A stretch of 64,000 nucleotides of DNA from a virus (lineage: Duplodnaviria; Heunggongvirae; Uroviricota; Caudoviricetes): positions 1 through 64,000 of IMG/VR virus record IMGVR_UViG_3300029696_000106; one strand, given 5' to 3'. Position 1 is the stretch's first letter. Each line of letters begins with the position of its first letter. The notes beneath the pieces are model-generated. The model searched no databases. It was not told where the DNA came from and worked only from the letters and a program-made list of their open reading frames with translations. The position numbers and the translations under genes were made by a program. This document shows, in pieces, positions 5,198 to 52,392 of this stretch.

Positions 5198-5216
5198 ATG
5201 CTCTCCTCCGTTTCCT

Positions 5217-7208
5217 TCATATCTTTTTTCCGTTCCGACGCTTTCTATACTCTACTTGAACCGGTTCTCCAAGGATCTCTGCTTCATTCTCCGCAAACTT
5301 TGGTTTTCCATCTTTGCCATATACCCGATAATCCTTGAAGTCCTTTATAGTCCTTCTGGCTCCTGAAGCGATAAATTCCATTCCGTAAATGGTCCGGTAA
5401 TGGATCACATCTCCGTCCACTCTGCCAGATTCAATATTTACGGCATACATTTCCCGGCTGAAGGTTAGCATATCTGGTGTACTCAAGAACACACCCGATT
5501 CCGTCCACTGCGGTTCTTTATCATCCAGACCATGCACCACTAGCTTCTGTCCATAGCGGTTTTGCTCCGGCAGGGCCAGCAGTTCCTCCAGAAAATATTC
5601 GTACCTCTTTTTCAGAATGATACCGCCTTCACTGCTTTCTTCCAAAATGTGTAGTTCGTTTTCCAGTTCTTCTTTCCGCTTCAGAATATCCTTCAGCAGT
5701 TCATTGTACATTGCCTCGGCACTTCCGGCCGCAGGTGTGTAAACACCATCCACACGCTGTTGATCCATCCCCTCCATAATAGCGTCCATCTGAATGCTCC
5801 CATCCCGAATGGACTCCTGTAAGCTCTCCTGCAGGAAAACCCGTTCCTGCTCTGCCATTTTCTTCTGTGCTTCCATCTGCTTTTTCATAAGGCGTTTACA
5901 TTCCTGTTCCAGCTTCTGAAGCAGTTCCCTGAGTTCCAAAATCCGTCCTGAATGGTCTTCCGGCTCCCTCTGGCATTCACGGTATTTGACCGCCAGCTCC
6001 GACTGCTCTTTGTTTTCCTCGTAATCCCGTTTCAAGCGGTAAAGCATCTCCATAAAGCCTTGTTCAATAGCGACCTCATAAAGCTCCTCTGTGCAGTCTT
6101 TATCCGAACAGCGCATCTTCCCAACACCATAAATCGCAAGTCCCTGCCGTTCCTTGGTATCTTCAATGGACTCTGCATCCACCCAGTATGCGGCAATCTT
6201 TCTCCTCTTGTGGACCATCGTCTTTCCGCACGCTGGACACGAAAGGTTTACATAGCAGATATTGAGAGGATCACGGCTTAGTAGCGGCGGCCTCCGTTTC
6301 ATTTCACTTTGCACGATCAACCAGGTTGCCCGGTCGACGATCGGTGCGTGGTGGTCCCTGATGTAATACTTTGGAAGCTGCCCTCTGTTCGGAACCGCCT
6401 TATGGGAAAGAAAATTGCTGGTCACATATTTCTGCATTTCCAAATCGCCCACATACTTCTCATTTAGGATCACATTCGAGAAGCTGCTGGGGTTCCAGTC
6501 CGTGCCAGATACCGTTTTCCAGCCTCGCTCGTTCATCTCTTTAATGATAGTTGCACGGCCGGCTCCGCAGGCATATCTCCGAAAAAGGTAACGCACCGGT
6601 TCCGCCTGCTCTTCATTGATGATCCATTCTCCGTTTTCCCCTTTGTCATATCCGATCATCCGGCTTAGATGGACCATCGGCTTCCCTTCCTGGAACCGCT
6701 TCTGATAAGACCAGTGGATGTTATCCGAAATGGAATGGCTTTCTTCCTGGGCAAGTGCGGAGTAAATGGTCAGGATCACCTCACTGGTGGAATCCAGAGT
6801 GTTGATGTTTTCCTTTTCAAAAAAGATGCCCACAGGAGGTGTCAGCTGTTTCAGCTGTCTTGCGCAGTCGAGGGTGTCCACGGTATTCCTTGCGAATCTC
6901 GATATGGATTTTGTGACTATTAAATCGATTTTCCCATTTCTCGCATCCTCCAGCATCTGGTTGAACTCATCCCTATGCAGGCGGCTTGTTCCGGTGATTC
7001 CCTCATCTGCATAAATTCCTGCGAATGTCCAGCCCGGATGCCGCTGTATCATATCCGTGTAGAATGCCTTCTGGGTCCGGTAGGACGTTTTCTGTTCATC
7101 TGAATCTGTGGATACTCTGCAGTAAGCTGCCACCCTTAACCCCTTCGGCTTTTCCTGGGCAGCCTTTTGAGCCGCCGCTTCCTTTATCAATCGTAAAACC
7201 TCTGACAT
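5217..7208 (-). CDS. large serine recombinase, paralogue 2
   Basis: VAAYCRVSTDSDEQ; KSISRFARNTVDTLD; CPACG zinc ribbon; 663 aa. Confidence 0.85.
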   Translation of the reverse strand: MSEVLRLIKEAAAQKAAQEKPKGLRVAAYCRVSTDSDEQKTSYRTQKAFYTDMIQRHPGWTFAGIYADEGITGTSRLHRDEFNQMLEDARNGKIDLIVTKSISRFARNTVDTLDCARQLKQLTPPVGIFFEKENINTLDSTSEVILTIYSALAQEESHSISDNIHWSYQKRFQEGKPMVHLSRMIGYDKGENGEWIINEEQAEPVRYLFRRYACGAGRATIIKEMNERGWKTVSGTDWNPSSFSNVILNEKYVGDLEMQKYVTSNFLSHKAVPNRGQLPKYYIRDHHAPIVDRATWLIVQSEMKRRPPLLSRDPLNICYVNLSCPACGKTMVHKRRKIAAYWVDAESIEDTKERQGLAIYGVGKMRCSDKDCTEELYEVAIEQGFMEMLYRLKRDYEENKEQSELAVKYRECQREPEDHSGRILELRELLQKLEQECKRLMKKQMEAQKKMAEQERVFLQESLQESIRDGSIQMDAIMEGMDQQRVDGVYTPAAGSAEAMYNELLKDILKRKEELENELHILEESSEGGIILKKRYEYFLEELLALPEQNRYGQKLVVHGLDDKEPQWTESGVFLSTPDMLTFSREMYAVNIESGRVDGDVIHYRTIYGMEFIASGARRTIKDFKDYRVYGKDGKPKFAENEAEILGEPVQVEYRKRRNGKKI

Positions 7209-7214
7209 TTTTCC

Positions 7215-9644
7215 TCACCCTTTCTTTACATATTTTTTCCGGTAGCAGTTATCCCGCATGGCCTGTCCGTCAAAATAAGATGCCGTATACCGGTAATCTT
7301 CTATATTACTGTACATGACAACCTCTGTCCTTGTGTCATCATACCAGTGAACCGTATAGTTCAACGGGGAATGGACCGTAATAGAAAGGACAAATGCCTT
7401 GCAGTAATCTGAGGTCACTCCATTCAAAAACTGCACCACGCCATCCCTTCCTTTCGGAAGTTCCTTCATCCATTCAATTGCCCGTTCTCTTCTCTCGTGG
7501 TCAGTCTCCAAATCCTCCCAGTACCCTTCCAGATACTCCAACCGTTCTTCCAGATGCTTTTTCTCATCCATATCCCGGTCAAGTTTTTCTTTCAACCTTC
7601 TGATTTTCTCAGCATTGCTCTGAATGACTGCCTCGTCGATGCTCTCATCTCCCAGCAGTTCACGTCTGGTCTGCATCACATCGTTCTGGCTTTCCAGAAG
7701 GCGCAGTTTTTTCCCACTGCTTTCCATTCCAATCTGGAGGGTGGCAATCTGCCGTTTGTAAAAAGCACGGTCCCGTTCCATAAAATCAGTGTGCTGGATA
7801 TTCTCCAGTCTTTTGATCATCTGCGGAACAAAGTCATCAGCTTCCTTTGTAAAACCTTCAAACTGCTCTCCGTAACGGCCGCTCATGATATCTGCCACTC
7901 CCACATTGTCATGAATTGGCTGTGTGCTCAGCCGGAATCGTTCAATGATTGCTTTACGGAAAGCCCTCACAATCTGCTCTTCATAGATTTTCTCGCAGTG
8001 GCAGATTCTCTTTCCATTATCAATCTCAGCTGTTGGGCAGTACCAGATAGGATAGTTTTTTGAATTTCTCACTCGGAAGAATCTGCCGCATTCTCCACAC
8101 AGGATCCTTCTTGAAAATGGCTTTGATCCTTTCTTTACTCCCTTCTCTTTCTTGGCGGCATTGGCTCTGCGGATTTCCTGAACAGTTTCAAACAGTTCTT
8201 CGTCTATAATCGCCGGATGGTGGTTTTTTACCAGATACTGCGGAAGTTCTCCATTATTCCGCTGGGTGTTATGGTTCAGAAAGTCCACGGTGAATTTTTT
8301 CTGGATCAGGACAGCTCCCGTATATCGTTCCCTTTGTATCATCTGAGAGATAATCCTTCCAGTCCATCCTTCTTCCAGATCACTGTTCAGCTGTCCTTTC
8401 TTTGAGTTCTTTTTTCTGGCTTTGACCGCCACGGTCTCAGGAGCTGGAATCCGGTCAAAATTCAAACCTCTGGCAACATCTGTATAGGCAGTACCCTCTG
8501 CCACCTCCTGAAAAATCCGGCGCACGATTTTTGCTTCTTCTTCCACAATTTCGATATCCCTATACTGATATCCACTTTCTGTCGTGACCATCTTTCCATT
8601 GTAGCGATACCCATATATGACCATGTTCTTTACCTCACCTCTCGGATAGCGCATCTTATTTCCAAGATTGATGTTTCTGGAAATACTCCGGCTTTCTTCT
8701 TGGGCAATCGCCGCAAGTGTCGTAAGAATGAAATCACTGGTCGGATCAGCTGTGTCCAGATTTTCTTTCTCAAAAAGGATCGTCACATTGTTGTCATGCA
8801 AAATATTAAGGGCGGTCATAAAATCCGCCGTATTTCTGGAGAAACGGGAAATCGACTTGCATACAATACGGTCTATTTTCCCTTCCCTGCAGTGCCGCAG
8901 AAGTCTTTTGAATCCAACACGCTTATCCTTGACCGTTCCTGAAATTCCATAATCGGAGTAAACCCCGATTGAATTCCAGTCTGGATTGTTTTCGATCAGC
9001 TGATGAAAATACCGTTCCTGCGTTTCGTAGGAGTTTTCCTGGTCACTGGAATCAGTGGAAACTCGAATGTAAGCGGCTACGTTCAGATGCCCTTCCTTTT
9101 CCTTTGTCCTGCGAAAAGAAGCTGTGGAAATAAATTCATTTTCTTCTTTCATTGCTTCTGCCTGTGGCTGGAAGACCGCCTCGAACTCACTTCTCAGCCC
9201 ACCGACCCGTTCCATAACAGGAACTGCCTGCTGCATTTTCTCCTTTGCAGCCAACGCCTTCTGGATCAGGGAAGCAATTCCGGCATCTCCGTTTTCCTTG
9301 GATTCGGATAACGGCAACTTTGTCTTTTTCTCTTTTTGTTTGGTAGACATCTCTTGGCGCACAACGCTTTCCTGCAAAAAAGAAGATGCAGCCGCCTTCT
9401 TATCAGATAGATCAGCTGCACCACTTTTTTCCTTCACCGCTTCATGGGATTTCTTTTCCTGCACAGGCATCTGAGTCACAGATGTGGTTTCCGGCAGGAC
9501 AGATTCGCCCTGTCCGGTCGCTGCCATCAACATCTTTGAAAGCTCGGCTGCTGAAGCATTCGGGCGGCTTTTCTGTTTCTGCTGTACGGTACTTTTGACC
9601 GTTGCGCTCTGCAGTTTCTGCAAAAAATCATTTGCTGTACTCAT
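7215..9644 (-). CDS. large serine recombinase, paralogue 3, with a ~190-aa low-complexity N-terminal extension
   Basis: Catalytic motif VAAYIRVSTDSSDQ only at about residue 195; KSISRFSRNTADF; CGECG zinc ribbon. Confidence 0.8.
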   Translation of the reverse strand: MSTANDFLQKLQSATVKSTVQQKQKSRPNASAAELSKMLMAATGQGESVLPETTSVTQMPVQEKKSHEAVKEKSGAADLSDKKAAASSFLQESVVRQEMSTKQKEKKTKLPLSESKENGDAGIASLIQKALAAKEKMQQAVPVMERVGGLRSEFEAVFQPQAEAMKEENEFISTASFRRTKEKEGHLNVAAYIRVSTDSSDQENSYETQERYFHQLIENNPDWNSIGVYSDYGISGTVKDKRVGFKRLLRHCREGKIDRIVCKSISRFSRNTADFMTALNILHDNNVTILFEKENLDTADPTSDFILTTLAAIAQEESRSISRNINLGNKMRYPRGEVKNMVIYGYRYNGKMVTTESGYQYRDIEIVEEEAKIVRRIFQEVAEGTAYTDVARGLNFDRIPAPETVAVKARKKNSKKGQLNSDLEEGWTGRIISQMIQRERYTGAVLIQKKFTVDFLNHNTQRNNGELPQYLVKNHHPAIIDEELFETVQEIRRANAAKKEKGVKKGSKPFSRRILCGECGRFFRVRNSKNYPIWYCPTAEIDNGKRICHCEKIYEEQIVRAFRKAIIERFRLSTQPIHDNVGVADIMSGRYGEQFEGFTKEADDFVPQMIKRLENIQHTDFMERDRAFYKRQIATLQIGMESSGKKLRLLESQNDVMQTRRELLGDESIDEAVIQSNAEKIRRLKEKLDRDMDEKKHLEERLEYLEGYWEDLETDHERRERAIEWMKELPKGRDGVVQFLNGVTSDYCKAFVLSITVHSPLNYTVHWYDDTRTEVVMYSNIEDYRYTASYFDGQAMRDNCYRKKYVKKG

Positions 9645-40599: not shown

Positions 40600-40690
40600 T
40601 TTTGTTTTCCGTAGGGCTTTCCCCTTCGTTGTGACTGTATATTACCGTCACCGCCGGATACTATCAAGCGGCTATGCTGCACGATCATAT
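40600..40690 (-). promoter_or_regulatory. promoter-leader cassette, copy 1
   Basis: Minus strand: GCCGCTTGATAGT-N17-GGTAATATACAGTCAC, then GAAGGGGAAAGCCC leader. Confidence 0.5.
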
Positions 40691-40779
40691 ACACCTCTTT
40701 TTGTCGGATTTATGTGTATTTCCACACTGGAAGAATCCGCCACTACGAGCAAAAGCCCCCGAAGGAGCTCTGCCCTTTT

Positions 40780-41064
40780 TCAGTGTGCGTTCCTGATGCA
40801 CCACTCGATTGCGTGACCGGCATCCGTGTAGGTCTCATCGGAAATCTTCAGAAGTTCCAGCCGGCACTCAATCGGTGACCAGCCTTCCTCCGGGTCTTCC
40901 ACAAAGCCGTAAACTGCTCCTTCCAGCATACCATTCCAGTTCATCTGGGCAACCAGAACCCTGTCACCGAACTGCATGATGCTGTCGTAGCAAGGTCTGA
41001 GTCGGTCGTAGAAGCTCTCGATGCTGATGTTGTTTTCCGGGAAGTCGATCAAATGCTTTTTCAT
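40780..41064 (-). CDS. hypothetical protein
   Basis: GGAGG RBS before MKKHLIDF. Confidence 0.5.
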   Translation of the reverse strand: MKKHLIDFPENNISIESFYDRLRPCYDSIMQFGDRVLVAQMNWNGMLEGAVYGFVEDPEEGWSPIECRLELLKISDETYTDAGHAIEWCIRNAH

Positions 41065-41087: not shown

Positions 41088-41170
41088 TTTTCCCTTGGGG
41101 CTTTCCCCTTTCGGTATGTGCATATTACCGTCAGGTGCAGAGGATAGCAAGCGGCTAAAGTACACGATCT
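41088..41170 (-). promoter_or_regulatory. promoter-leader cassette, copy 2
   Basis: GCCGCTTGCTATC-N-CTGACGGTAATATGCACATACCGAAAGGGGAAAGCCCCAAGGG. Confidence 0.5.
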
Positions 41171-41199
41171 TCCGTCTGGAATACCGGGCAGAATGTACA

Positions 41200-41439
41200 T
41201 CACTCTGCATCCTGCTCCATGAGTTCCACAATGGTGTCGTAGAAGAACTGCGGGTCATATGCCAGCGGTTCCCGTCCGGCTTCCTTATCCATCCTGATCT
41301 GGTCTTCCACCATATCCTCGGCATCCTCCAGCGTAAAAGCATCCTTATCGCTGTCATCCATGTGGTTGTAGATTTCCACGATGACATCCATCATCCGCTC
41401 TTCCATGTGCTTCTCCTTCTGGCGCATCCACGCCGCCAC
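41200..41439 (-). CDS. small acidic protein (hypothetical)
   Basis: 79 aa, Asp/Glu-rich. Confidence 0.4.
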   Translation of the reverse strand: MAAWMRQKEKHMEERMMDVIVEIYNHMDDSDKDAFTLEDAEDMVEDQIRMDKEAGREPLAYDPQFFYDTIVELMEQDAE

Positions 41440-41477
41440 ATCTGCCCCTGTGTGGGGCTGTGTCGGGGGCTGTCGGT

Positions 41478-41695: not shown

Positions 41696-41760
41696 TTCCG
41701 TTTCGGTATGTGCATATTACCGTCTATGCCACACACTATCAAGCGGCTATACTACACAAA
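41696..41760 (-). promoter_or_regulatory. promoter-leader cassette, copy 3 (shortened leader)
   Basis: GCCGCTTGATAGTGTGTGGCATAGACGGTAATATGCACATACCGAAACGG. Confidence 0.45.
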
Positions 41761-41839
41761 GATAGCCACCCGGAACTGTGCGTATTACGGCAGAAGAAAA
41801 GGGCCGCCGTTTCCGGCAAGCCCCGTGTGTTTCTCTGGC

Positions 41840-42286
41840 TTAGTAGTCTTCTTCCTCGTCGTAGTCCTCTTCGTCCCAGTCATCTTCCTCTTCATCCCAG
41901 CTGTCATCCTGGTCTTCTTCCTCATCTTTGAAGTCCCACATATCTTCAGTCGGCTGGGTTCTAAGGTCTGGATTCTGCTCGACATAATCGACAACCGCTC
42001 CGCAAAGGATATCCATGACCTTTTCGTAGGCGTCCTCGCTGAAGATCTCCCAAAGCCCTGCGGTCAGGCAGCTGACCTCTGCGTTACCCTTTGCGATCAG
42101 GAATCGGGCTGCCGGGTTGCAGGTTTCCTTGCCGTAGGCAATGTTCACCATGTCACCATCGTTGTAAAAGCGGTAGGCGATGCGGCTCATTGCCCTTACC
42201 AGTTCCCCTGCAAGGCTGTCTGCCTTGCCCGTCTCCGGTACCAGTTCCTTGAAAAGTTTATTGATGCGGTCTTCGTTCTTCGTCAT
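41840..42286 (-). CDS. acidic protein with a poly-D/E/W C-terminal tail (DNA-mimic-like)
   Basis: C-terminus DEEEDQDDSWDEEEDDWDEEDYDEEEDY. Confidence 0.5.
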   Translation of the reverse strand: MTKNEDRINKLFKELVPETGKADSLAGELVRAMSRIAYRFYNDGDMVNIAYGKETCNPAARFLIAKGNAEVSCLTAGLWEIFSEDAYEKVMDILCGAVVDYVEQNPDLRTQPTEDMWDFKDEEEDQDDSWDEEEDDWDEEDYDEEEDY

Positions 42287-42310
42287 TGTCATATCCTCCA
42301 TTTTTGTTGT

Positions 42311-42392
42311 TTCCCTTGGGGCTGTTCCCCTTTCGGTGACTGTATATTACCGTCACCCTGGAACACTATCAAGCGGCTAAACTACACGATCA
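42311..42392 (-). promoter_or_regulatory. promoter-leader cassette, copy 4
   Basis: GCCGCTTGATAGTGTTCCAGGGTGACGGTAATATACAGTCACCGAAAGGGGAACAGCCCCAAGGG. Confidence 0.5.
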
Positions 42393-42501
42393 TCAAGCCC
42401 TTTAATTGTCATATTTATGTGCTTTTTACGCCATCTTTCGGAAGACCAACACGAGCAAAAGGCTGGTCATTTCCAGCCCCTTGCGCCTGTCGGTCTTGCC
42501 T

Positions 42502-42995: not shown

Positions 42996-43065
42996 CTTTC
43001 GTTTTGGTAGCTGTATATTACCGTCACTGCCGGACACTATCAAGCGGCTAAAGTACACGATCATC
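42996..43065 (-). promoter_or_regulatory. promoter-leader cassette, copy 5
   Basis: GCCGCTTGATAGTGTCCGGCAGTGACGGTAATATACAGCTACC. Confidence 0.5.
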
Positions 43066-43124
43066 TGCGCCCTGAACTGGTGGATTTATGTGTTTATCCG
43101 GGGAGGTTTCCCTCCCCATTTTTC

Positions 43125-43301: not shown

Positions 43302-43320
43302 TCTGCTGTCCTCCTTTGCT

Positions 43321-43385
43321 TTTTGTAGCTGTATATTACCGTCACTGCCCTGTGATAGCAAGGCCATAAAACGTCATATTATCAA
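43321..43385 (-). promoter_or_regulatory. promoter-leader cassette, copy 6 (variant -35 region)
   Basis: TTATGGCCTTGCTATCACAGGGCAGTGACGGTAATATACAGCTACA. Confidence 0.45.
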
Positions 43386-43510
43386 CGATCTTCCCCCTTC
43401 ATGTTTGGTACATATATGACCCCTGATTGACTTGCTATATATGTGTTTCTGCGGCATTATACACACAACGAAAGCAAAGAAAACCAAACCAAAAACGGAG
43501 GACAAAAACC

Positions 43511-43762
43511 ATGAAAAAGACCATTACAGAAGTTGAAACCGCAATCGAAAACCGCATCGCAGAGCTTGAAGAAGAATACGAGCTGGACATTTACGACCGC
43601 AACGACATCCGGGAAGAAGAATACCAGAAAGCCGGATGGCGGCACGACCCTTTCCCAGAGGAGCTTGAGGAAGAGGACGAAGAAGAGGAAGAGGATTGGC
43701 ACTACCACAGCATAGAGGAACGACTGAACGAGGTCGGCATGAGCATGAGGGATTTCTTCTAA
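43511..43762 (+). CDS. small acidic protein on the plus strand (hypothetical)
   Basis: GGAGG RBS before MKKTITEVE; EELEEEDEEEEEDWHYH. Confidence 0.45.
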   Translation: MKKTITEVETAIENRIAELEEEYELDIYDRNDIREEEYQKAGWRHDPFPEELEEEDEEEEEDWHYHSIEERLNEVGMSMRDFF

Positions 43763-44226: not shown

Positions 44227-44598
44227 TTATTCCGGCTTCGTTCCGTCATCCATCTGGATGACTGCCATCTGCTCGAATATGCTGACGAATGCCTCCGGCA
44301 CCCAGAATCGTTCCCTGAATTTCTGGATAAGGTCTTGGGGCAGCTCTGCGAAATCCTCCTCTCCCAGTCCGCAGATGAAGAAGTTTCCCTTGATGGGCTG
44401 CTCCAGTTCCGGGATGTATCTGCTGAATGGCTTCTCGGTGAACAGCCCGTTGTCATCGGTGACCAGGGCGGCGCGTTCTTCCCACGGGTATGTGGCTGTG
44501 ATGCAGTCGCAGTCGAGGATGCGATAGAACTCTTTCAGGGAGTTTTCAATGTCCACCACCTGCGGATGCTCCATCGGCTTGATCAGAAGGACTTTCAT
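44227..44598 (-). CDS. DUF3846-domain protein
   Basis: MKVLLIKPMEHPQVVDIENSLKEFYRIL...GNFFICGL pattern is typical of DUF3846 on ICEs and phages. Confidence 0.55.
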   Translation of the reverse strand: MKVLLIKPMEHPQVVDIENSLKEFYRILDCDCITATYPWEERAALVTDDNGLFTEKPFSRYIPELEQPIKGNFFICGLGEEDFAELPQDLIQKFRERFWVPEAFVSIFEQMAVIQMDDGTKPE

Positions 44599-45062
44599 TC
44601 GACCCAGCCCCCTTTCACGATTGCCCAGTCTGCAAGATGCATCTTCTGCTGTCCGCTCCATGCAATGTCCTCTAACGCTTCCTCAGTTCCGCAGCGGTTG
44701 CAGATCTGAATGTCCGCCCTTCGGCTGAGTGCCTGCTGCTGATGGTCGTAGCAGTCAGGCTTTGCTCCGCACCTGGGGCAACGTGGGCCGGTCTGTCGCG
44801 TTTTACCAAGGCGGTCGAGCGACACCTTGACCTCGGCATCCGTTGCCACACGGTGGCAACTGTCCGCACCGTAGGAAACGTTCAGATGGCTTCTGGTATC
44901 CCAGCTCACTAAGATGTTTCCGGCATCATCGACCCCGTTGCAGGTTCCCTGCGTTCCGATGGGCGGTGCCTGCCTGTCATCCATCTCATCGAGGACGATC
45001 CGGCATCCGACCGGGAACTCTTTTCTCAACTTCTTGACCGTTTTCTGATCTGCGAAATTCAT
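44595..45062 (-). CDS. DUF4314-domain protein with a C-terminal Cys4 zinc ribbon
   Basis: FPVGCRIVLDEMDDRQAPPIGTQGTCNGVDDAGNILVSWD; CPRCG...CNRCG. Confidence 0.6.
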   Translation of the reverse strand: MNFADQKTVKKLRKEFPVGCRIVLDEMDDRQAPPIGTQGTCNGVDDAGNILVSWDTRSHLNVSYGADSCHRVATDAEVKVSLDRLGKTRQTGPRCPRCGAKPDCYDHQQQALSRRADIQICNRCGTEEALEDIAWSGQQKMHLADWAIVKGGWVE

Positions 45063-45538
45063 GCCTGCACCTCCTCGATCATCCGCTGGGCGGCATCCTT
45101 ATCCATGCATTCCTTCAGCGCACCTTCGAGGATGTGCATCGGGAAGCGGAATGCCTTATAGCCGTCATGCAGGACTTTGTAGTAATACCGGCTCGGTGCG
45201 CGGTGTCCAAAGTCGTTCTCCATGATGTAGACCATTGCGGTCACCATCTCCGGCTCTGCCCCTTCCCGGAGCAGTTCGATGTTCAGGTCTTCCTTGCGGT
45301 AGTAGTTCGGGTAGCCCTCATAGAGGTCGAGGTTCTCTTCGTCCCTTTCCGAGATCTCCCACACCAGAACCGGCGTGTTCTTCTTCGGGTTCGGTGCGAT
45401 GGTGGCGCAGCCGCGGAACAAAAGCTCCCAGCCTGCCAGCACCGCCTGTCCTGCAATTTTTGCATCCGGGCATCGGTCTGCCATCTGCTCCACCGACAGG
45501 TTGCTGCCGTAGGCGATGTAATATTTCTTGTTCTTCAT
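45059..45538 (-). CDS. gamma-glutamyl cyclotransferase-like (AIG2/GGCT fold) protein
   Basis: YYIAYGSNLSVEQMADRCPDA...YEGYPNYY; start refined to MKNKKYY. Confidence 0.6.
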   Translation of the reverse strand: MKNKKYYIAYGSNLSVEQMADRCPDAKIAGQAVLAGWELLFRGCATIAPNPKKNTPVLVWEISERDEENLDLYEGYPNYYRKEDLNIELLREGAEPEMVTAMVYIMENDFGHRAPSRYYYKVLHDGYKAFRFPMHILEGALKECMDKDAAQRMIEEVQA

Positions 45539-45577
45539 TTGAATCTCTCCCTTCGGTTTTCTCCGCTCTTGTCTGGC

Positions 45578-45640
45578 GGTATGGTATATATCACTCTTTT
45601 GCCCTGATTTATCAAGGCCGATGTGCATCATATACTGCAC
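45578..45640 (-). promoter_or_regulatory. promoter cassette, copy 8 (variant)
   Basis: CCTTGATAAATCAGGGCAAAAGAGTGATATATACCATACC. Confidence 0.4.
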
Positions 45641-45668
45641 AATGTTTTTTGCTTTTGATCGTGTACTC

Positions 45669-46190
45669 TTACATCATCTGCCGCTTCTTCAGATACCGGA
45701 CGGCTTCCGTCCTTCCGATACTGGCTGCCAGTCCACGCTTCAGTGTGTCCAGCGGAAATCCCCAGTCGCTGTATCCGCCGTGCAGCAGTTCAAAATACTC
45801 GGCATCCGGGCAGCCAAGCCGCCGGTCCTCGTGCATCACATAAGCGATGCAGGGCTTTGCCTTTTTCATGCGGTTCCCGTTCAGGTTCCAGACCGGAAGC
45901 TGGAACTGCTTCTTGTAGTAGTATCGTGGGCAGCCCTCGTACCGGTCCAGCAGGAGCTCATCGTATTCTGAGAGCTTCCAGACCACTGCTGGTACGCTTT
46001 CATTGGCATCCTGCTCGATGGTGGCATAGCAGCCGGTCTTACTCTTTTTGAACAGGAGCCGGTAGCCCTTGATCTCGGTCGTGCCGACCACCACAGCGTA
46101 AGGGCATCTCTTTCCCATCCGCTCCATGTCGAGGTTGCTTCCGTAGGCAAGGTAATATCTGGATGGGACTCGGCTAATCAGTTCAAACAT
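45669..46190 (-). CDS. gamma-glutamyl cyclotransferase-like protein, paralogue 2
   Basis: YYLAYGSNLDMERMGKRCPYA...YEGCPRYYY. Confidence 0.6.
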   Translation of the reverse strand: MFELISRVPSRYYLAYGSNLDMERMGKRCPYAVVVGTTEIKGYRLLFKKSKTGCYATIEQDANESVPAVVWKLSEYDELLLDRYEGCPRYYYKKQFQLPVWNLNGNRMKKAKPCIAYVMHEDRRLGCPDAEYFELLHGGYSDWGFPLDTLKRGLAASIGRTEAVRYLKKRQMM

Positions 46191-46419
46191 CCGCCTCACC
46201 GTCCTCCCTGCCAGTGAATTCCACACCCTGGAAATCCTCCGTCCCAAGCTCGATCTGGCTGTCCTGCCACCAGTCCTCTGCCACACGCTGGGCTTCCTCC
46301 ACGGTCGGCTCTTTCATTTCGGATTCATAAATGGTCACCGTTCTCTGGTAGGTCTCAGTGATGGTCACCTTAAAGGCCCTGCCTCCCGGTGTGTTTTCAT
46401 TTTTTAACGTGCTTTTCAT
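46183..46419 (-). CDS. hypothetical protein
   Basis: 78 aa. Confidence 0.4.
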   Translation of the reverse strand: MKSTLKNENTPGGRAFKVTITETYQRTVTIYESEMKEPTVEEAQRVAEDWWQDSQIELGTEDFQGVEFTGREDGEADV

Positions 46420-46486
46420 AAACCTGCACCTCCTTCTACCACCTCAAGGGCGGTTGCCCGCCCAAAAGGTGCCCGTGCATCCCGGC

Positions 46487-47425
46487 TTATTTGTTCCGCC
46501 AGGATGCGTTGCCCTCCATGTTCCGCAGAAGGATCTCCCTTGCCGTTGCAAATTCATCCCCGATGAATCCCAGCCTCAGCATCCAGCACCGCATGGCGTA
46601 CTTTTCGTTGTCGGTCTGCTGGGGCTTCGGGCTTGCCGTTCTGACCATCTTAGCAAGCTGGCTCATTGCGAGGCAAAGCTGGATGTAGGCTTTCATCTCA
46701 CCGGCGTGCAGTCCGTTGCGCCTTCCGTCCGCTGGGTCTGCGAATTGGAAAAGGCGGAATTCAATGGTCCCTTTTGTGAAGGTGGCATGGAGGTTCAGCA
46801 TATGGTACCGGCTTGAATTGTAGTGGGCATTCCGGTTTTCCCAGCTGGAACCGTTGCCTTCGTACCAGATGTCTTCCAGCTTGCGCATGGTGGTCGGCTT
46901 CTCGCGGTTCAGCCGGTCGAGGAAGCGGTGGTTGACCACCTGGCAATATTGTCCGGTGCGCCCTGCATCGATCCGGATGGCTCTGCCGATCTGCTGTTCG
47001 TGCGCCGCCATGATGTTCACAAGGTTGCGGATGGTCTTTGCGGTGTGGTCGCCTTTGCCGATGTGGATGTGGACCCCGCATCCGCGGCTTGGGCCGCTCT
47101 TTGCGCCTGCCTTGCGGAGCAGCCGGATGATTTCCTGCAGGGGTTCGATGTCGTCGTAGGTGAGGATCGGGGTGACCAGTTCGCATTTTTCTGCGTCCGG
47201 TCCGTAGATGCTCACATTCCTCTGGAATTTCCAAACCCTGCCCTGCTGGTCCTTGCAAGCCCAGCTGTAATATCCGTACTCGCCAGCGGCGTTCCATGCT
47301 CTGGTTCCGAAGTACTCAGCGACCTTTCTTGCCGCTTTTTCTCTGGTGATGTTGTTCATCTCGATCTCAACTCCGATGGTCTGGTTCTTCATGGCTTCAA
47401 TCTGCTCTCTTGTTTTATCGTTCAT
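46487..47425 (-). CDS. putative amidoligase (GS/GCS2-like, Amidoligase_2 family)
   Basis: IGVEIEMNN...GCGVHIHIG...TIEFRLFQF motifs; start MNDKTREQ after AAAGGAG. Confidence 0.55.
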   Translation of the reverse strand: MNDKTREQIEAMKNQTIGVEIEMNNITREKAARKVAEYFGTRAWNAAGEYGYYSWACKDQQGRVWKFQRNVSIYGPDAEKCELVTPILTYDDIEPLQEIIRLLRKAGAKSGPSRGCGVHIHIGKGDHTAKTIRNLVNIMAAHEQQIGRAIRIDAGRTGQYCQVVNHRFLDRLNREKPTTMRKLEDIWYEGNGSSWENRNAHYNSSRYHMLNLHATFTKGTIEFRLFQFADPADGRRNGLHAGEMKAYIQLCLAMSQLAKMVRTASPKPQQTDNEKYAMRCWMLRLGFIGDEFATAREILLRNMEGNASWRNK

Positions 47426-47451
47426 GGTATGTTCTCCTTTGTTTTTTCCTT

Positions 47452-47522
47452 GTTTTCCCTTTCGGTATGTGCATATTACCGTCAGGTGCACATAATAGCA
47501 AGGCCATAAAAGAACATATATT
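47452..47522 (-). promoter_or_regulatory. promoter-leader cassette, copy 7
   Basis: TTATGGCCTTGCTATTATGTGCACCTGACGGTAATATGCACATACCGAAAGGG. Confidence 0.45.
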
Positions 47523-47657
47523 CGACAAATATCGAGAGGAATGATCGTGTACATTTCTGCGGTTTATCCGCTTGATAATGTACATTTTCAGAGTTAATAT
47601 CGGTACAATGGAAGAGAGGCTCGCATATTTTCCGGCCCCCATTGGGGGCTTGGGAGC

Positions 47658-48785
47658 TTACGCTCCCGCCTCCAGCATCTGCGCCGTGTCTGCCCCACAG
47701 TCGGGCTGTGTCGGCTCGGCATCTGCCGATGCGATCATTTTCCCAGGGGAGGCACTGCCCTCCTGCGCCGCCTGTTTCGCGGCTTTCAGGGCATCACGCT
47801 TTGCCTTTTCCCTTGCAAGGAACTTCTGTGCTTCCTCATCCGTGCGGAAAGCCGCATGGCCGGAAAGGTTCTCCATCAAAATCTTTCTGGTCTGCTTGAA
47901 GTCCGGGCCATTCATGCCAAGGCGCAGAAGCCAAGTTCGCAAAGCGTATTTCTCATTGGAATCGTTCACCTCTTTTGCCTGAATCCGCTTCTGGCTGATA
48001 GCCTGCTGGTTCATCAGAATCGCAAGGTGTCCGAATGCAGTCAGGTGGTCATAATCCGGTGCCATCGGGAAACCTGTAAAGGTAACTTTCTCATCTGTGA
48101 TCGTCAAGCCTTCCAGGGAAGCACCATGCTGTTCTTCATACTCTTTGAGCGCATGAATGAAATTTGCTACCGCATAAGTGCAGCTGTCATCTTTCAAGGC
48201 ATCCACCAGCCCCTTATCGGCAAGGAAAATGCCGTCCGTTGCCTTGCTGACGAGTTCCCCTCTGCTGTAGATCAGATTGACCAGGTTGCGAAGCGATACG
48301 CCGTTATGCTGACTGATCGGGAAAGAAAAATCCGCATCCAGAGGGATTGCTTCCTCTGCCACAGGCTGTTCCCCACCTTCTTCCGATGGGATTTGCTCTG
48401 CACTCTCCATTTCGGATTCCCCATCTTCCTCGGCTTCTTCTGAATCCCCTTCACAGGTCTCCTGCTCATTTGGATCTACTGCCGGAATCATCTGGACACC
48501 CTCGGCAAGGTCTACCGCAGGCTGTTCGTCTGCAGTTTCCTGCAAAGTCTCTGCATCCACATCCTCGCCGCCACGGATCAGGCCTTCATTCATCAGCGTA
48601 GTCAGCAATTCCAGATCTGCATTTTCCGCCTCCACCAGCAGGTTGCCATCCCGGTCAATGGTGTAATTTCCGATGTCATACGCATACCGAGGGGCCTTGG
48701 TGTAGTAAGGATGAATGCCTGTCAGCTCCTCCATCCGCTTTGCCAGTGTTTTGCGCTCCTCTACATTTAGTTCAAACTTCAACAT
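47658..48785 (-). CDS. amidoligase-related paralogue with a divergent N-terminal half and an acidic insert
   Basis: Shares SLRNLVNLIYSRGELV and C-terminal NEKYALRTWLLRLGMNGPDFKQTRKILMENLSGHAAFR with 46487..47425, but lacks the GVEIE motif. Confidence 0.5.
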   Translation of the reverse strand: MLKFELNVEERKTLAKRMEELTGIHPYYTKAPRYAYDIGNYTIDRDGNLLVEAENADLELLTTLMNEGLIRGGEDVDAETLQETADEQPAVDLAEGVQMIPAVDPNEQETCEGDSEEAEEDGESEMESAEQIPSEEGGEQPVAEEAIPLDADFSFPISQHNGVSLRNLVNLIYSRGELVSKATDGIFLADKGLVDALKDDSCTYAVANFIHALKEYEEQHGASLEGLTITDEKVTFTGFPMAPDYDHLTAFGHLAILMNQQAISQKRIQAKEVNDSNEKYALRTWLLRLGMNGPDFKQTRKILMENLSGHAAFRTDEEAQKFLAREKAKRDALKAAKQAAQEGSASPGKMIASADAEPTQPDCGADTAQMLEAGA

Positions 48786-48827: not shown

Positions 48828-48895
48828 GATGTTTTTTTCGGTAGCACATATATCACTCTGAACCGGGCAAATAGCAAGTCCATTTCCGAATAATC
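48828..48895 (-). promoter_or_regulatory. promoter cassette, copy 9 (variant)
   Basis: ACTTGCTATTTGCCCGGTTCAGAGTGATATATGTGCTACC. Confidence 0.4.
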
Positions 48896-49010: not shown

Positions 49011-51131
49011 TTATTCTTCCAGACCTGCGCACCATGCAATGCCGGCGAGAACAAAGTATACACACGGAAGTGCGACACCGTTGCCCCAGAGCTTGTACTC
49101 TGCTGCATCCGAATACGGATCAGCCAGCCATTTTCGCAGCTGTTTCTCTGTCTTCTGCTTCTTAGCCTGTGTCACGATCCGTCTGTGGGTTTCAAACACA
49201 TCTGCCCAGAAAGTGAGTTCTTCCTCAGTCGGATTTTCTGTTCCAAGGTCTCTGCACCACCAGTCCGGGAAGCCTTGCAGTCTGGCACACTCGGTTGGTG
49301 TCAGGCGGCGGACGGTATAGGTCACTGGCGTGGACTGTACTTCTGGGTTGTCGATGACCAGACGGTCATTGAAAGCATCCTGCCCATTAAAGCCGCTGGG
49401 ATGTGCCCCAGTCGCCACCGTTCCCATAACTCCCTCGTTCAGATGCGGTGCCGGTGCGATGGTGGTCGGGTCTTTGTAATCCCGTGCCATCAAAGTCGGT
49501 GCAACTTCTTTCTCCACCTGCATATAGGAACCAGTTGTCATGGCATACACACTTTCTGGTGCGCAGACTGCATGGCGGTCTGTCGCATCTAAGGTGAAGC
49601 AGACATCCTCATTGACACCATCCCCCTGCGGACCATTCTCATCCTTACGGCCAATCATGTTGCCCTGCAGGACGAAGGTCTGCTGCTTCATCCCTAGCTC
49701 TGCTGCAAGTGCTGCTGACTTCTCTCCCAGATCCCGGACTTCATCCCTCTGATTCTGTGTAAAAGCAACCGGCTCTACTACACAGATGCCGCCCTGGTTA
49801 CAGGTCGGGTCTCCACCACTGCGGTCAAGAGTCCGGGATGTATCTGCTTCATAAAAACCGCTATGCGGATTATCGGACATCATGGAATGACTGGCTTTAG
49901 AGCAGACACCGTAGCATTTCGGAACGAACAGCGTCTGGTCGTTGTTGCAGCCGAGGGTGGCTGACTTTTCTTCCTGCCAGATGGCTCCCTTGCCGCCGCC
50001 CTCACATCCGGAGCGGATCTTCAATGTGACTGCCGGGGAGTTCTCAACATCTTTCACCGGGCTTTCCACCGACTTTTCAACACCATCCATGACCAGTGGA
50101 ACATTGCCGCCACCCGTACCACACCGGCTGGTCAGGGTCTGCACCTTGCCATCCTCGGAAATCTTCACCCGGCTGTCTGCAGGATGGTTTTCCAAAGCAA
50201 TAGCGGCAGGCACAACACCAGCCCGGAGAGTTGGTGACCGTTCCTCTTCATACCCGATGCTTCTTGCGTTGGCAGAGTGTTCCGTGCAGAAACCGGCTGC
50301 TTCCAGAACACACGGAGGATGGTGTGCTTCTGCTCGAAGCGTTGATGTCACTTCCTTTGTCACATCCATTCTCTCCCCATCCTGATCATTCAGGCAGATT
50401 CTTCCTGTGCCGCCTGCCTTTCCAGTGCTGCTTTCAACACAGGTGGCAGCTCTTTGCCACGCACGGAAGCTCTCCGCAGAATACCGAGACACGCCTTCGG
50501 ACTCAAATAATACTTTTGGGGCACTCTGGTCTGCAAAATCTGCGACAAGGAAGATTCGTTTTCTACGCTGGGGCACGCCCCACCACTGTGCATCAAGGAC
50601 TCGATACGCGACACTCCATCCGTCTCCCAAATAGTAGTCAGCATCCGGCCATCCCTTTTTCTCAGGCGCAGGCACCTGGGCAGACGGTTCTTTAACACCG
50701 ATGACGGCTTCGAGGACTGCCTTGAAGTCCTGTCCTTTGTTTGAGGAGAAGGCCCCTGGCACATTCTCCCACACGATAAATCTTGGTTTTTCTCCATTGG
50801 TCTTACACCTCATTTCCTTCACGATTCGGATTGCTTCGTAAAACAGGCTGGACCGTGAACCATCCAGACCGTCCCGCTTACCGGCGATAGACATATCCTG
50901 ACAGGGACTTCCAAAAGTAATGATGTCAACAGGCGGCAAGTCCGCACCGCTGATGGCAGACACATCACCATAGTGCCTCACCCACGGCAGGCGCTTGGTC
51001 GTGACTCGGATGGCAAAGGGCTCCACCTCGCTGCTCCACAGCGGAGTGATCTGCCCGGTCAAAAGTCCACCCAACGGGAAACCCCCGGAACCATCAAAGA
51101 GGCTGCCGAGTGTCAGCTGTTTATTCTCCAT
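49011..51131 (-). CDS. DNA (cytosine-5) methyltransferase with an unusually long variable region (~705 aa)
   Basis: LFDGSGGF (motif I), GSPCQDMS (PC motif), ENVPG (ENV motif), C-terminal GNGVALP. Confidence 0.85.
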   Translation of the reverse strand: MENKQLTLGSLFDGSGGFPLGGLLTGQITPLWSSEVEPFAIRVTTKRLPWVRHYGDVSAISGADLPPVDIITFGSPCQDMSIAGKRDGLDGSRSSLFYEAIRIVKEMRCKTNGEKPRFIVWENVPGAFSSNKGQDFKAVLEAVIGVKEPSAQVPAPEKKGWPDADYYLGDGWSVAYRVLDAQWWGVPQRRKRIFLVADFADQSAPKVLFESEGVSRYSAESFRAWQRAATCVESSTGKAGGTGRICLNDQDGERMDVTKEVTSTLRAEAHHPPCVLEAAGFCTEHSANARSIGYEEERSPTLRAGVVPAAIALENHPADSRVKISEDGKVQTLTSRCGTGGGNVPLVMDGVEKSVESPVKDVENSPAVTLKIRSGCEGGGKGAIWQEEKSATLGCNNDQTLFVPKCYGVCSKASHSMMSDNPHSGFYEADTSRTLDRSGGDPTCNQGGICVVEPVAFTQNQRDEVRDLGEKSAALAAELGMKQQTFVLQGNMIGRKDENGPQGDGVNEDVCFTLDATDRHAVCAPESVYAMTTGSYMQVEKEVAPTLMARDYKDPTTIAPAPHLNEGVMGTVATGAHPSGFNGQDAFNDRLVIDNPEVQSTPVTYTVRRLTPTECARLQGFPDWWCRDLGTENPTEEELTFWADVFETHRRIVTQAKKQKTEKQLRKWLADPYSDAAEYKLWGNGVALPCVYFVLAGIAWCAGLEE

Positions 51132-52392
51132 CGGCATCCTCGCTTTCCGGCTCGAAGGTTGCCACTTCCTCGAACTTCAGCTTCTGACCGTCGCGGATAA
51201 CAAACACATCATCGTAGTGGCCTTCGCTGTGTTCGATGTACCGCTTCACGATAACATCCACGAACTTCGGATCAAGCTCGATGCCCCGACACACACGGTC
51301 CGTTTCCTCACAGGCGATCAATGTCGAGCCGCTACCAAGGAACGGATCGAGGACGATGCCGTTGGTCATAGTTGAGTTGCGGATTGGATAGCTCATCAGG
51401 CCGATGGGCTTCATGGTCGGATGATCCTTGTTGGACTTCGGCCGGTCATACTCCCAGATGGTCGTCTGCTTTCGGTCGGAATACCACTGGTGCTTCCCCT
51501 TCTGCTTCCAACCGTAAAGACACGGTTCGTGCTGCCACTGGTAAGGACTGCGCCCCAGCACCAGAGCATTCTTCTTCCAAATACAGCACCCAGACAGGTA
51601 GAACCCGGCATCCTTGAATGCCTTTCTAAAGTTCAGCCCTTCCGTATCTGCATGGAAGATGTAGATGGAGCCGTCATCCGCCAGATGACCGTGCATCTGC
51701 TGGAACGCTGCCAGAAGGAACTGGTAGAATTCCGAATCGCCCATGTTGTCATTCATGATCTTACCGGCCGTTTCTTCCACATCCACATTGTAAGGAGGAT
51801 CGGAAAGAACCAGATTTGCCTTGGTACCTTCCATCAGGGTATCGTAGCATTCTGCCTTAGTGGAATCGCCGCACAGAACGATGTGCTTTCCCAGATGCCA
51901 GAGGTCGCCCTCTTTGGAGAAGCACGGCTGCTTCAGCTCGGATTCCACATCGAAGTCATCTTCCTTGACCTCTTTGCTGTGGACCTTGTTGAACAGCGTC
52001 TCGATCTCAGGCGGGTCAAAGCCTGTCTTGCCGAGGTCGAAGTTGGAATCTTCGATGTCCTTGAGCAGGTCAGCCAGCAGAGAATCATCCCATGCACCCG
52101 TAATCTTGTTAAGTGCGATGTTCAGAGCTTTTTCTCTGGTCTTGTCGATGTCCACCACCGCACAAGGCACTTCTGTGTATCCCAGTTCCATTGCAACAGT
52201 CAGTCTCTGATGGCCGCCGATGATCGTCATGTCGGCATTGACCACCAAAGGATCTGCGAAGCCGAACTCCGTGATGGAGTTCTTGATTTTCTCGTACTCT
52301 TTATCCCCCGGCTTCAACTTTTTCCGGGGATTGTATGCAGCCGGCTTGAGTACGGACACCGGCAGCATCTTTAGTTCAGCAGTCGCTTTCAT
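51121..52392 (-). CDS. ParB-like nuclease domain fused to an N6A/N4C amino-methyltransferase (beta class)
   Basis: N-terminal ParB fold, then SDPPYNV and later DPFLGSGST. Confidence 0.8.
   Translation of the reverse strand: MKATAELKMLPVSVLKPAAYNPRKKLKPGDKEYEKIKNSITEFGFADPLVVNADMTIIGGHQRLTVAMELGYTEVPCAVVDIDKTREKALNIALNKITGAWDDSLLADLLKDIEDSNFDLGKTGFDPPEIETLFNKVHSKEVKEDDFDVESELKQPCFSKEGDLWHLGKHIVLCGDSTKAECYDTLMEGTKANLVLSDPPYNVDVEETAGKIMNDNMGDSEFYQFLLAAFQQMHGHLADDGSIYIFHADTEGLNFRKAFKDAGFYLSGCCIWKKNALVLGRSPYQWQHEPCLYGWKQKGKHQWYSDRKQTTIWEYDRPKSNKDHPTMKPIGLMSYPIRNSTMTNGIVLDPFLGSGSTLIACEETDRVCRGIELDPKFVDVIVKRYIEHSEGHYDDVFVIRDGQKLKFEEVATFEPESEDADGE

Follow-up and report, generated by a model that had tools for sequence, protein, structure and literature searches.

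The 64,000-nucleotide (nt) stretch of DNA analysed here (the window; positions 1 to 64,000 of IMG/VR virus record IMGVR_UViG_3300029696_000106) is a Candidatus (Ca.) Heliusvirales-type prophage of Lachnospiraceae. It encodes a predicted ATP-dependent amidoligase (C) next to two gamma-glutamyl cyclotransferase (GGCT)-fold paralogues (A and B), together with an amidoligase-derived protein (D) that has lost its catalytic residues; every gene of this region lies on the minus strand. In the reading we prefer, with middling confidence, C and the GGCT(s) sustain a make-and-break cycle, of the writer/eraser or protect/deprotect kind, on a gamma-glutamyl-type amide of an amine-bearing target. The minimal unit would be C plus one GGCT, with D as a separate, non-enzymatic protein. 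All four open reading frames delineated in an earlier, sequence-only reading of the locus are present, each behind a Shine-Dalgarno-like site.

The amidoligase and its cyclotransferase partners

C (46487-47425; 312 amino acids, aa) belongs to the Amidoligase_2 family of carboxylate-amine ligases with the glutamine synthetase (GS)/glutamate-cysteine ligase (GCL) fold. It matches PF12224 over profile positions 1-244 of 245 (E = 3.1e-53; 181.6 bits, cut-off 22) and PHROG 2443 (E = 3.9e-103). Its structural model adopts a GS/GCL-type fold, in agreement with the GS-like fold proposed from sequence, and is matched best by glutamate-cysteine ligases, with Pup ligase/Dop and glutamine synthetases also among the matches; sequence searches of the PDB with C and D yielded nothing meaningful. 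The motifs GVEIEM, GVHIHIG and TIEFR, previously singled out in C, are present and invariant in homologues, and E20 and E22 (GVEIE), E82, H119 and H121 (GVHIHIG), and E222 and R224 (TIEFR) are invariant in three alignments. Judged by its modelled fold and these residues, C is predicted to be a catalytically intact, active ligase. The C family has more than 8000 database matches, and a scan of one representative genome per species confirmed 307 C loci. As a separate observation, the amidoligase gene is split in several related phages in which the GGCT genes are intact: it is broken by an insertion of ~3.4 kb in locus L081 (1289-2041 and 5431-5742), and frameshifts or truncations are found in L009 (7232-8300), L153 (4298-5323), L073 and L076.

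Among the two cyclotransferase-fold proteins, B (45669-46190; 173 aa) is the first paralogue and A (45059-45538; 159 aa) the second. The Pfam family GGACT (PF06094; cut-off 22.8 bits) is matched by A with E = 8.7e-12 (46.1 bits) and by B with E = 3.9e-9 (37.6 bits). A also matches AIG2_2 (PF13772; E = 6.8e-7), and both proteins fall into PHROG 2520, ‘gamma-glutamyl cyclotransferase’ (E = 1.5e-41 for A and 6.4e-37 for B). The two are 35% identical to each other (E = 7e-33), and the cyclotransferase signature attributed to them earlier reads YYIAYGSNL...YEGYPNYY in A and YYLAYGSNL...YEGCPRYY in B. An alignment with human GGCT (2pn7; E = 1e-4) spans the entire length of A, the YGSNL loop included, and A-E74 and B-E85 fall at the position of Glu98 of the human protein, which we take to be its catalytic residue. 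Both YGSNL and the Glu are retained in 181-183 of the 184 distinct A/B homologues. The catalytic elements expected of the fold are therefore in place on alignment, and A and B are predicted to be catalytically intact members of the GGCT family. At loci with two GGCTs, the B-type gene always comes first and the A-type gene second, and single GGCTs are equidistant from the two (~40% identity to both), from which the duplication is judged old; both copies have kept their catalytic residues.

To describe gene linkage, 167 related loci were annotated with hidden Markov models (HMMs) built from the window proteins. Among species-representative genomes, a GGCT gene lies directly downstream of C in 66 of the 66 loci with a complete C gene and enough flank, drawn from the 80 loci that resemble C most closely (identity of 63% or more); 17 of these loci carry two GGCTs. 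The linkage, already pointed out in the sequence-only reading, recurs in distant phages. Bacillus phages 035JT001 and PBC5, in which the amidoligase is 25-28% identical to C, encode Pfam-confirmed Amidoligase_2 and GGACT proteins ~1 kb apart in a different gene context; these GGCTs were identified with Pfam, the window-derived GGCT HMMs being too narrow to pick them up. In Arthrobacter phage Laroye, the amidoligase is paired with a class-II glutamine amidotransferase (GATase) that starts with MCGI and contains RYxT, NG and DSE motifs. We take these to be the canonical glutamine-site motifs, and the protein would presumably also split a gamma-glutamyl amide. The Bacillus phage pairs and the Laroye partner therefore argue that the link between C and GGCT is functional rather than merely syntenic. 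Faecalibacterium phage FP_Taranis (L168, 1462-3520) encodes an amidoligase with 37.7% identity to C, followed by two ~130-aa proteins without a Pfam match and then by a zinc-ribbon protein resembling the C-terminal half of the window DUF4314 protein (see below).

The amidoligase-derived protein D

D (47658-48785; 375 aa) matches PHROG 2443 (E = 4.5e-37) and is homologous to C (BLASTP E = 5e-13). No match was found in Pfam, NCBIfam or PADLOC, and a search of its segments against Pfam at E up to 10 returned only a sub-threshold DUF2773 match on the N-terminal segment (18.5 bits, cut-off 25), which was disregarded. The protein consists of an N-terminal beta-alpha-beta subdomain (residues 1-75), a disordered acidic linker (76-148), a core (149-315) homologous to residues 117-312 of C, and a basic helical tail. 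In the hhalign alignment of the two families (99.6% probability, E = 2.6e-24; C 117-312 with D 150-317), H119, H121, E222 and R224 of C are replaced in D by D152, S154, T235 and T237, respectively, and the C segment H201-H213 has no counterpart. The acidic linker stands in place of the strand-helix that bears E82 in C, and members of the D family do not consistently keep the N-terminal ExE. What D retains in common with C is the H-x5-RNLVN helix (H127 in C and H160 in D, followed by (S/T)LRNLVN) and, outside the Pfam domain, a C-terminal two-helix unit, NEKYAxRxWLxRLG..G.E.K..R..L. Because the catalytic residues are replaced and the elements shared with C are non-catalytic, we regard D as an apparent amidoligase-derived pseudoenzyme, catalytically dead, rather than an enzyme. 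The sequence-only reading had described D as a diverged amidoligase paralogue with an acidic insert, which is borne out, and as having lost only the N-terminal motif, which is not: all catalytic motifs are gone and the fold of the N-terminal subdomain is kept.

The D family comprises 2277 cluster representatives at E up to 1e-3, and the length of its linker ranges from 0 to ~130 residues. D evolves faster than C, with 39-100% versus 63-100% identity over the same loci. The final ~60 residues of D, by comparison, are near-invariant among 22 homologues that otherwise differ by 15-30% (3' end of the gene, window 47658-47840), and a 33-nt stretch within this 3' end (47682-47714) recurs between genes at 41434-41466 with 79% identity. 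Either the DNA or RNA itself may be under constraint here, or recombination may have been recent.

D lies upstream of C in 47 of the 59 loci from species-representative genomes, and a ParB-type methylase is found upstream in 45 of 47 loci, a C5 methylase being usually present as well. The commonest architecture is methylase(s)-D-short DUF4314-C-GGCT; that of the window's clade is D-C-DpnD-B-A-DUF4314-DUF3846. D is also found without C. At three loci (L023, L027 and L052), it is directly followed by an A-type GGCT, DUF4314 and DUF3846, with C, DpnD and B missing, and some related gut phages have D alone. Furthermore, Streptococcus (Javan), Erysipelothrix (phi1605) and Clostridium (CWou-2020b) phages encode D-family proteins, often named ‘virulence-related protein’ (E = 1e-41 to 1e-47 with the D-family HMM), after an adenine (ParB-type) methylase and before the terminase, in the absence of C and GGCT. 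DUF4314 follows the D-like protein in the Streptococcus and Erysipelothrix phages; none was detected in Clostridium CWou-2020b. The proposal of a four-gene system is thus not upheld. Because D occurs without C, it belongs to a broader methylase-D-DUF4314 block, and the partners to which it is primarily linked are the ParB-type methylase and DUF4314 rather than C. Most likely, D is a binding or adaptor protein tied to these two partners.

Chemistry of the pair and alternative explanations

The likely chemistry, target and biological role of the pair are deduced from folds, families, residue conservation and loss, and linkage. The characterised structural relatives of C presumably act on the gamma-carboxyl(amide) of glutamate, which the ligases activate and at which Dop cleaves; for this reason, C most likely makes a gamma-glutamyl amide. 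By analogy with these relatives, C would use ATP to phosphorylate a glutamate-type gamma-carboxylate, which would then be joined to an amine. GGCT-fold enzymes cleave gamma-glutamyl amides with a free alpha-amino group into 5-oxoproline and the amine, and A and B would likewise cyclise the glutamyl part of the amide to 5-oxoproline and release the amine. Glutaminases also split gamma-glutamyl amides, and the exchange of GGCT for glutaminase partners narrows the chemistry to cleavage of such a bond. C and the cyclotransferase(s) would accordingly be viewed as an obligate make-and-break pair, expressed from its own sigma-70-like promoters in a block between the DNA methylases and the terminase, and D would be a binding or adaptor protein that retains the non-catalytic surfaces common to C and carries a variable acidic linker.

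Several points weigh against a make-and-break cycle. The literature searched gives no substrate, product or phenotype for any family member, and a ligase and a cyclotransferase acting on the same free small molecule amount to a futile cycle. The neighbouring small proteins (DpnD-like and short DUF4314) have no conserved tag-like C-terminus. The residues of C were equated with GS/GCL catalytic residues by motif position, not by residue-level superposition, and the 66 of 66 linked loci, being among those most like C, cover one subfamily. No recognisable GGCT lies beside the FP_Taranis amidoligase, and the phages with D and an A-type GGCT in the absence of C indicate that a GGCT can be kept alone.

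A more specific version of the cycle, which we put forward as rather unlikely, is reversible gamma-glutamylation of a macromolecule, for example a host protein that serves immunity or binds DNA, modified at its lysines, or a nucleic acid, modified at an amino group. C would be the writer, the GGCTs erasers or proof-readers with different specificities, and D a ligase-derived decoy or adaptor that acts, together with the ParB-type methylase, on phage DNA as it enters or replicates. If true, viral post-translational or post-replicative modification would gain a new class, present in highly prevalent human gut phages. In a variant of equal standing, a GGCT-fold protein would stand in for the glutaminase subunit and the pair would be an amidotransferase of a new kind.

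Such an amidotransferase is an unlikely alternative to the make-and-break cycle. The GGCT would take glutamine (also a gamma-glutamyl amide) or a gamma-glutamyl amine, form 5-oxoproline by cyclisation, and pass the freed ammonia or amine to C, which would amidate another carboxylate, for instance that of a cell-wall precursor, a protein or a nucleotide; the GGCT would be a non-homologous replacement of a class-II GATase. Close adjacency is usual for glutaminase/synthase pairs, and the partner has been swapped between lineages, with GGCT in Firmicute phages and an N-terminal nucleophile (Ntn) glutaminase in Laroye. An amidoligase with a GATase has also been reported from OM43 phages (PMC10580990). 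No class-II GATase is among the genes scanned at 39.6-52.4 kb of the window. However, the close structural relatives of C activate the glutamyl gamma-carboxylate, and making and breaking the same bond needs fewer assumptions. Two divergent GGCT paralogues are also hard to explain as simple ammonia donors, and we know of no GGCT-fold enzyme that uses free glutamine.

Alternatively, the pair could act as a metabolic drain in host takeover, with C making a gamma-glutamyl amino acid from free glutamate and the GGCTs immediately turning it into 5-oxoproline and giving back the amino acid, so that ATP and glutamate are burned or 5-oxoproline accumulates, as in the futile gamma-glutamyl cycle of glutathione-synthetase deficiency. 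Gamma-glutamyl amino acids are the substrates of human GGCT, which A matches along its whole length, the best structural matches of C are glutamate-cysteine ligases, and an obligate pairing of C with GGCT provides exactly the two enzymes required. We nevertheless consider a drain improbable: it offers no obvious gain to a temperate phage and leaves two specialised GGCT paralogues unexplained, and the glutaminase partner in other phages would regenerate glutamate, not 5-oxoproline.

Modification of the cell envelope for superinfection exclusion appears less probable still. Here the ligase would attach or amidate a residue on the precursors of peptidoglycan or teichoic acid, in which gamma-D-glutamyl bonds occur, and trimming would fall to the GGCT. 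Promoters of their own would permit expression of the genes in the lysogen, and two papers cite a role of this kind as the one proposed for phage amidoligase/GATase pairs (PMC11318856, PMC10580990). Yet reading of the A-D and DpnD translations, as opposed to a signal-peptide or transmembrane predictor, revealed no obvious N-terminal hydrophobic segment, and the module is embedded among the lytic-cycle genes, on their strand, with replication genes on one side and packaging genes on the other.

There is little to recommend the idea that the module and the adjacent methylases place an amino-acid-type group on phage DNA or on a nucleotide precursor and thereby block restriction. The ParB-type N6 methylase upstream in 45 of 47 loci and the usual C5 methylase would suit it, as would the S-adenosylmethionine (SAM) synthetase and HNH genes of relatives and the Nmad4 (‘nucleotide modification associated’) protein encoded at 40780-41064; speculatively, the C-terminal helical unit shared by C and D could bind nucleic acid. 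But the genes scanned at 39.6-52.4 kb include no base-hydroxymethylase, kinase or DpdA-type enzyme, the Bacillus phage pairs are not adjacent to methylases, and the methylase linkage is explained by D, which is found without C. Just as improbable is the absence of any system, the genes being mere syntenic neighbours in one phage lineage: most loci come from related Heliusvirales-type phages whose gene order could be inherited, and D is separable from C and GGCT, but for C and GGCT this is contradicted by their proximity in Bacillus phages that are unrelated and order their genes differently, and by its survival through rearrangement (D-DUF4314-C-GGCT versus D-C-DpnD-B-A).

Genomic context and comparison with known systems

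Promoter-like sites precede three genes of the module, all on the minus strand. The site upstream of C (47473-47501; TTGCTA, 17 nt, TAATAT), found by repeat search and alignment, lies inside one copy of a seven-copy cassette. Those upstream of D (48847-48877; TTGCTA ... TGATATAT) and A (45585-45615; TTGATA ... TGATATATA, extended -10) were recognised by sequence reading and alignment; unlike the cassette, both have a TG-extended -10, and the D site is outside the seven-copy cassette and absent from the consensus scan list. DpnD and B have no promoter-like site of their own. The view that each gene has its own promoter cassette must therefore be revised to three sites (D, C and A) for five to seven genes, only that of C belonging to the cassette. 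As promoter-like sites stand only before D, C and A, the likely transcription units, given these putative promoters, are D, C-DpnD-B and A-DUF4314-DUF3846.

The ~80-nt cassette occurs seven times on the minus strand between 40.6 and 47.5 kb (40621-40703, 41104-41186, 41696-41778, 42326-42408, 42997-43079, 43319-43386 and 47459-47526; repeat families D1, D3 and D4) and comprises TTGMTA, 17 nt, TAATAT and a conserved purine-rich leader. Its core, TGACGGTAATATRCA, has 7 matches against 0.11 expected. Each copy precedes a gene, six of them small genes and one C, and the cassette has the appearance of a phage promoter in repeated copies that share an operator or leader. A structured RNA in the intergenic cassettes is not supported, as Rfam gave no match at gathering score over 39.5-53.5 kb. 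A 12-nt motif, GTACACGATCAT (at most 1 mismatch), is present in 5 copies against 0.21 expected and in both orientations (41160-41171, 42382-42393 and 43053-43064 on the plus strand; 45655-45666 and 47541-47552 on the minus strand). All copies lie just upstream of promoter-like sites, including those of A and C, the copy before A (45655-45666) having the form GTACACGATCA; the motif may be a binding site for a regulator.

Between C and B lies a fifth gene, overlooked in the sequence-only reading, for a DpnD/PcfM-like protein of 78 aa (46183-46419, minus strand; PF14207, E = 6.5e-7, 29.7 bits, cut-off 25). Its stop overlaps the start of B (ATGTTTGA), suggesting translational coupling. The DpnD-like gene occurs in the two-GGCT clade, and the C-terminus of its product is not conserved. 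Downstream, the stop of A overlaps the start (ATGA) of a gene for a DUF4314 protein with a C-terminal CxxC...CxxC zinc-ribbon-like region (44595-45062, minus strand; PF14192, E = 9.6e-25), which is followed by a frequent downstream neighbour, a DUF3846 protein (44227-44661, minus strand; PF12957, E = 6.8e-24). In most related elements, a short DUF4314 gene is located between D and C. Upstream of D, on the same strand, are a C5 cytosine DNA methylase (49011-51137; PF00145, E = 4.2e-41) and a ParB-N-domain/N6_N4 DNA methylase (51121-52392; PF01555, E = 4e-28, and PF02195). Among the small genes downstream toward the terminase, only DUF6900 and Nmad4 are recognisable.

Known defence and anti-defence families were rejected for the module: PADLOC gave no match for 8 proteins of the block, NCBIfam gave none either, and the Pfam scans revealed no ArdA/Ocr-type family, a result that covers these libraries as opposed to a dedicated anti-defence one. 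The module had been placed among likely anti-restriction genes, a description that suits only the two adjacent orphan DNA methylases, as DUF4314, DUF3846, DUF6900 and Nmad4 are not known anti-restriction families. A role in host manipulation or anti-defence is something we infer from genome position. Elsewhere in the window, a 153-aa protein (41840-42301, minus strand), without a Pfam or PADLOC match, ends in 45 residues that are almost all Asp, Glu, Trp and Tyr (…DEEEDQDDSWDEEEDDWDEEDYDEEEDY), an acidic tail that resembles a DNA mimic. A candidate opposite-strand gene for an acidic protein of ~84-111 aa is located at 43427-43762 (plus strand); a gene is called at the equivalent position, likewise in opposite orientation, in loci L001-L004.

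The window has the gene content of a temperate siphovirus-like prophage, with large and small terminase subunits, portal, tail and lysin genes, three large serine recombinases and a D5-type primase. The module belongs to an accessory block that extends from the DNA methylases to the terminase, between the replication and packaging genes and on the same strand as both. A conjugative-plasmid origin, suggested by DpnD/PcfM, DUF4314 and the ParB-methylase, was ruled out by the terminase, portal, tail, lysin and serine recombinase genes. Megablast returned no plasmid match, and tblastn with C hit only 7 plasmid records, all non-mobilizable. The three serine recombinase genes (765, 663 and 809 aa; Resolvase and Recombinase domains) are arranged in tandem at the prophage end (2900-9644, minus strand), and a 1984-aa open reading frame in the tail region (23034-28988, minus strand) could encode a tape-measure or a polyvalent protein.

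The GenBank relatives are Ca. Heliusvirales phages, a type reported to be widespread in the human gut (PMC11283538), and near-identical modules are present in Blautia faecis and other Clostridia. At loci L088, L089 and L090 the C protein of the module is 97-98% identical, although the cultured isolates that carry it (Blautia faecis, Faecalibacterium intestinale and Clostridium fessum) are classified in different families. Such near-identity could mean that the range of hosts is very wide, that the module was transferred recently, or that assemblies are contaminated or were given the wrong taxon.

Among characterised systems, pupylation (PafA ligase and the deamidase/depupylase Dop) differs from the module in several respects. 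A Pup-like protein tag is not supported, given the variable C-termini of the DpnD-like and short DUF4314 proteins, which have no conserved C-terminal Glu or Gln; D lacks catalytic residues, whereas Dop is active; the putative eraser has the GGCT fold; and the hosts are Firmicutes rather than Actinobacteria. Gamma-glutamylation pathways for amines include PuuA/PuuD of putrescine catabolism in E. coli, GmaS, and the gamma-glutamylanilide and naphthylamine synthetases. In such pathways, oxidising steps separate ligation from removal and a hydrolase regenerates glutamate, whereas here no intermediate enzymes are conserved and removal would yield 5-oxoproline. The one characterised pairing of a ligase with a cyclotransferase that we know of is the protect-deprotect pair of butirosin biosynthesis, in which the ATP-dependent ligase BtrJ adds a gamma-glutamyl group and the GGCT-fold BtrG removes it. 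However, BtrJ is an ATP-grasp enzyme and C is GS-like, and the substrates of BtrJ are attached to a carrier protein; the neighbours scanned (39.6-52.4 kb) include neither a carrier protein nor biosynthetic genes. The ‘virulence-related proteins’ of the Javan, phi1605 and CWou-2020b phages belong to the same family as D and, like D, lie between the adenine methylase and the terminase, but they are shorter (216-240 aa), their acidic linker is short or absent, and neither C nor a GGCT accompanies them.

The closest precedent is computational. Iyer, Abhiman, Burroughs and Aravind in 2009 (Mol Biosyst 5:1636) and the Pfam text for PF12224 reportedly link the amidoligase family in Proteobacteria to a GAT-like thiol peptidase and in Firmicutes to an AIG2 cyclotransferase. 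Later papers cite the 2009 survey only for predicted cell-wall modification in phiEco32 or secondary-metabolite synthesis (PMC11318856, PMC10580990). Prophages of C. clostridioforme LM41 are described as carrying ‘amidoligase x2 + gamma-glutamyl cyclotransferase’, of the same families, PHROG 2443 and 2520 (PMC11318856). Our literature search found no experimental characterisation of any member of the module, as the sequence-only reading had also stated, and no distinction between pseudoenzyme and amidoligase was found in existing annotations. The pair, an unexplained prediction since 2009, is now a standard accessory module of Ca. Heliusvirales-type phages, and the identity of its substrate would reveal how these phages act on their Clostridia hosts in the interval from replication to packaging.

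The pairing of C with GGCT, already predicted by computational surveys, is very common, and the present locus adds a member of that kind: as in the neighbourhoods described in 2009, a GS-like amidoligase stands beside an AIG2/GGCT protein on a Firmicute phage. It differs from them in its two old GGCT paralogues, in its DpnD-like gene and in that one of the ‘amidoligases’ is a probable pseudoenzyme with a wider distribution. What is new here is that D is an apparent pseudoenzyme with a distribution of its own, linked to methylases, that the duplication behind A and B is old, and that GGCT and glutaminase have been exchanged as partners of the amidoligase across phage lineages.

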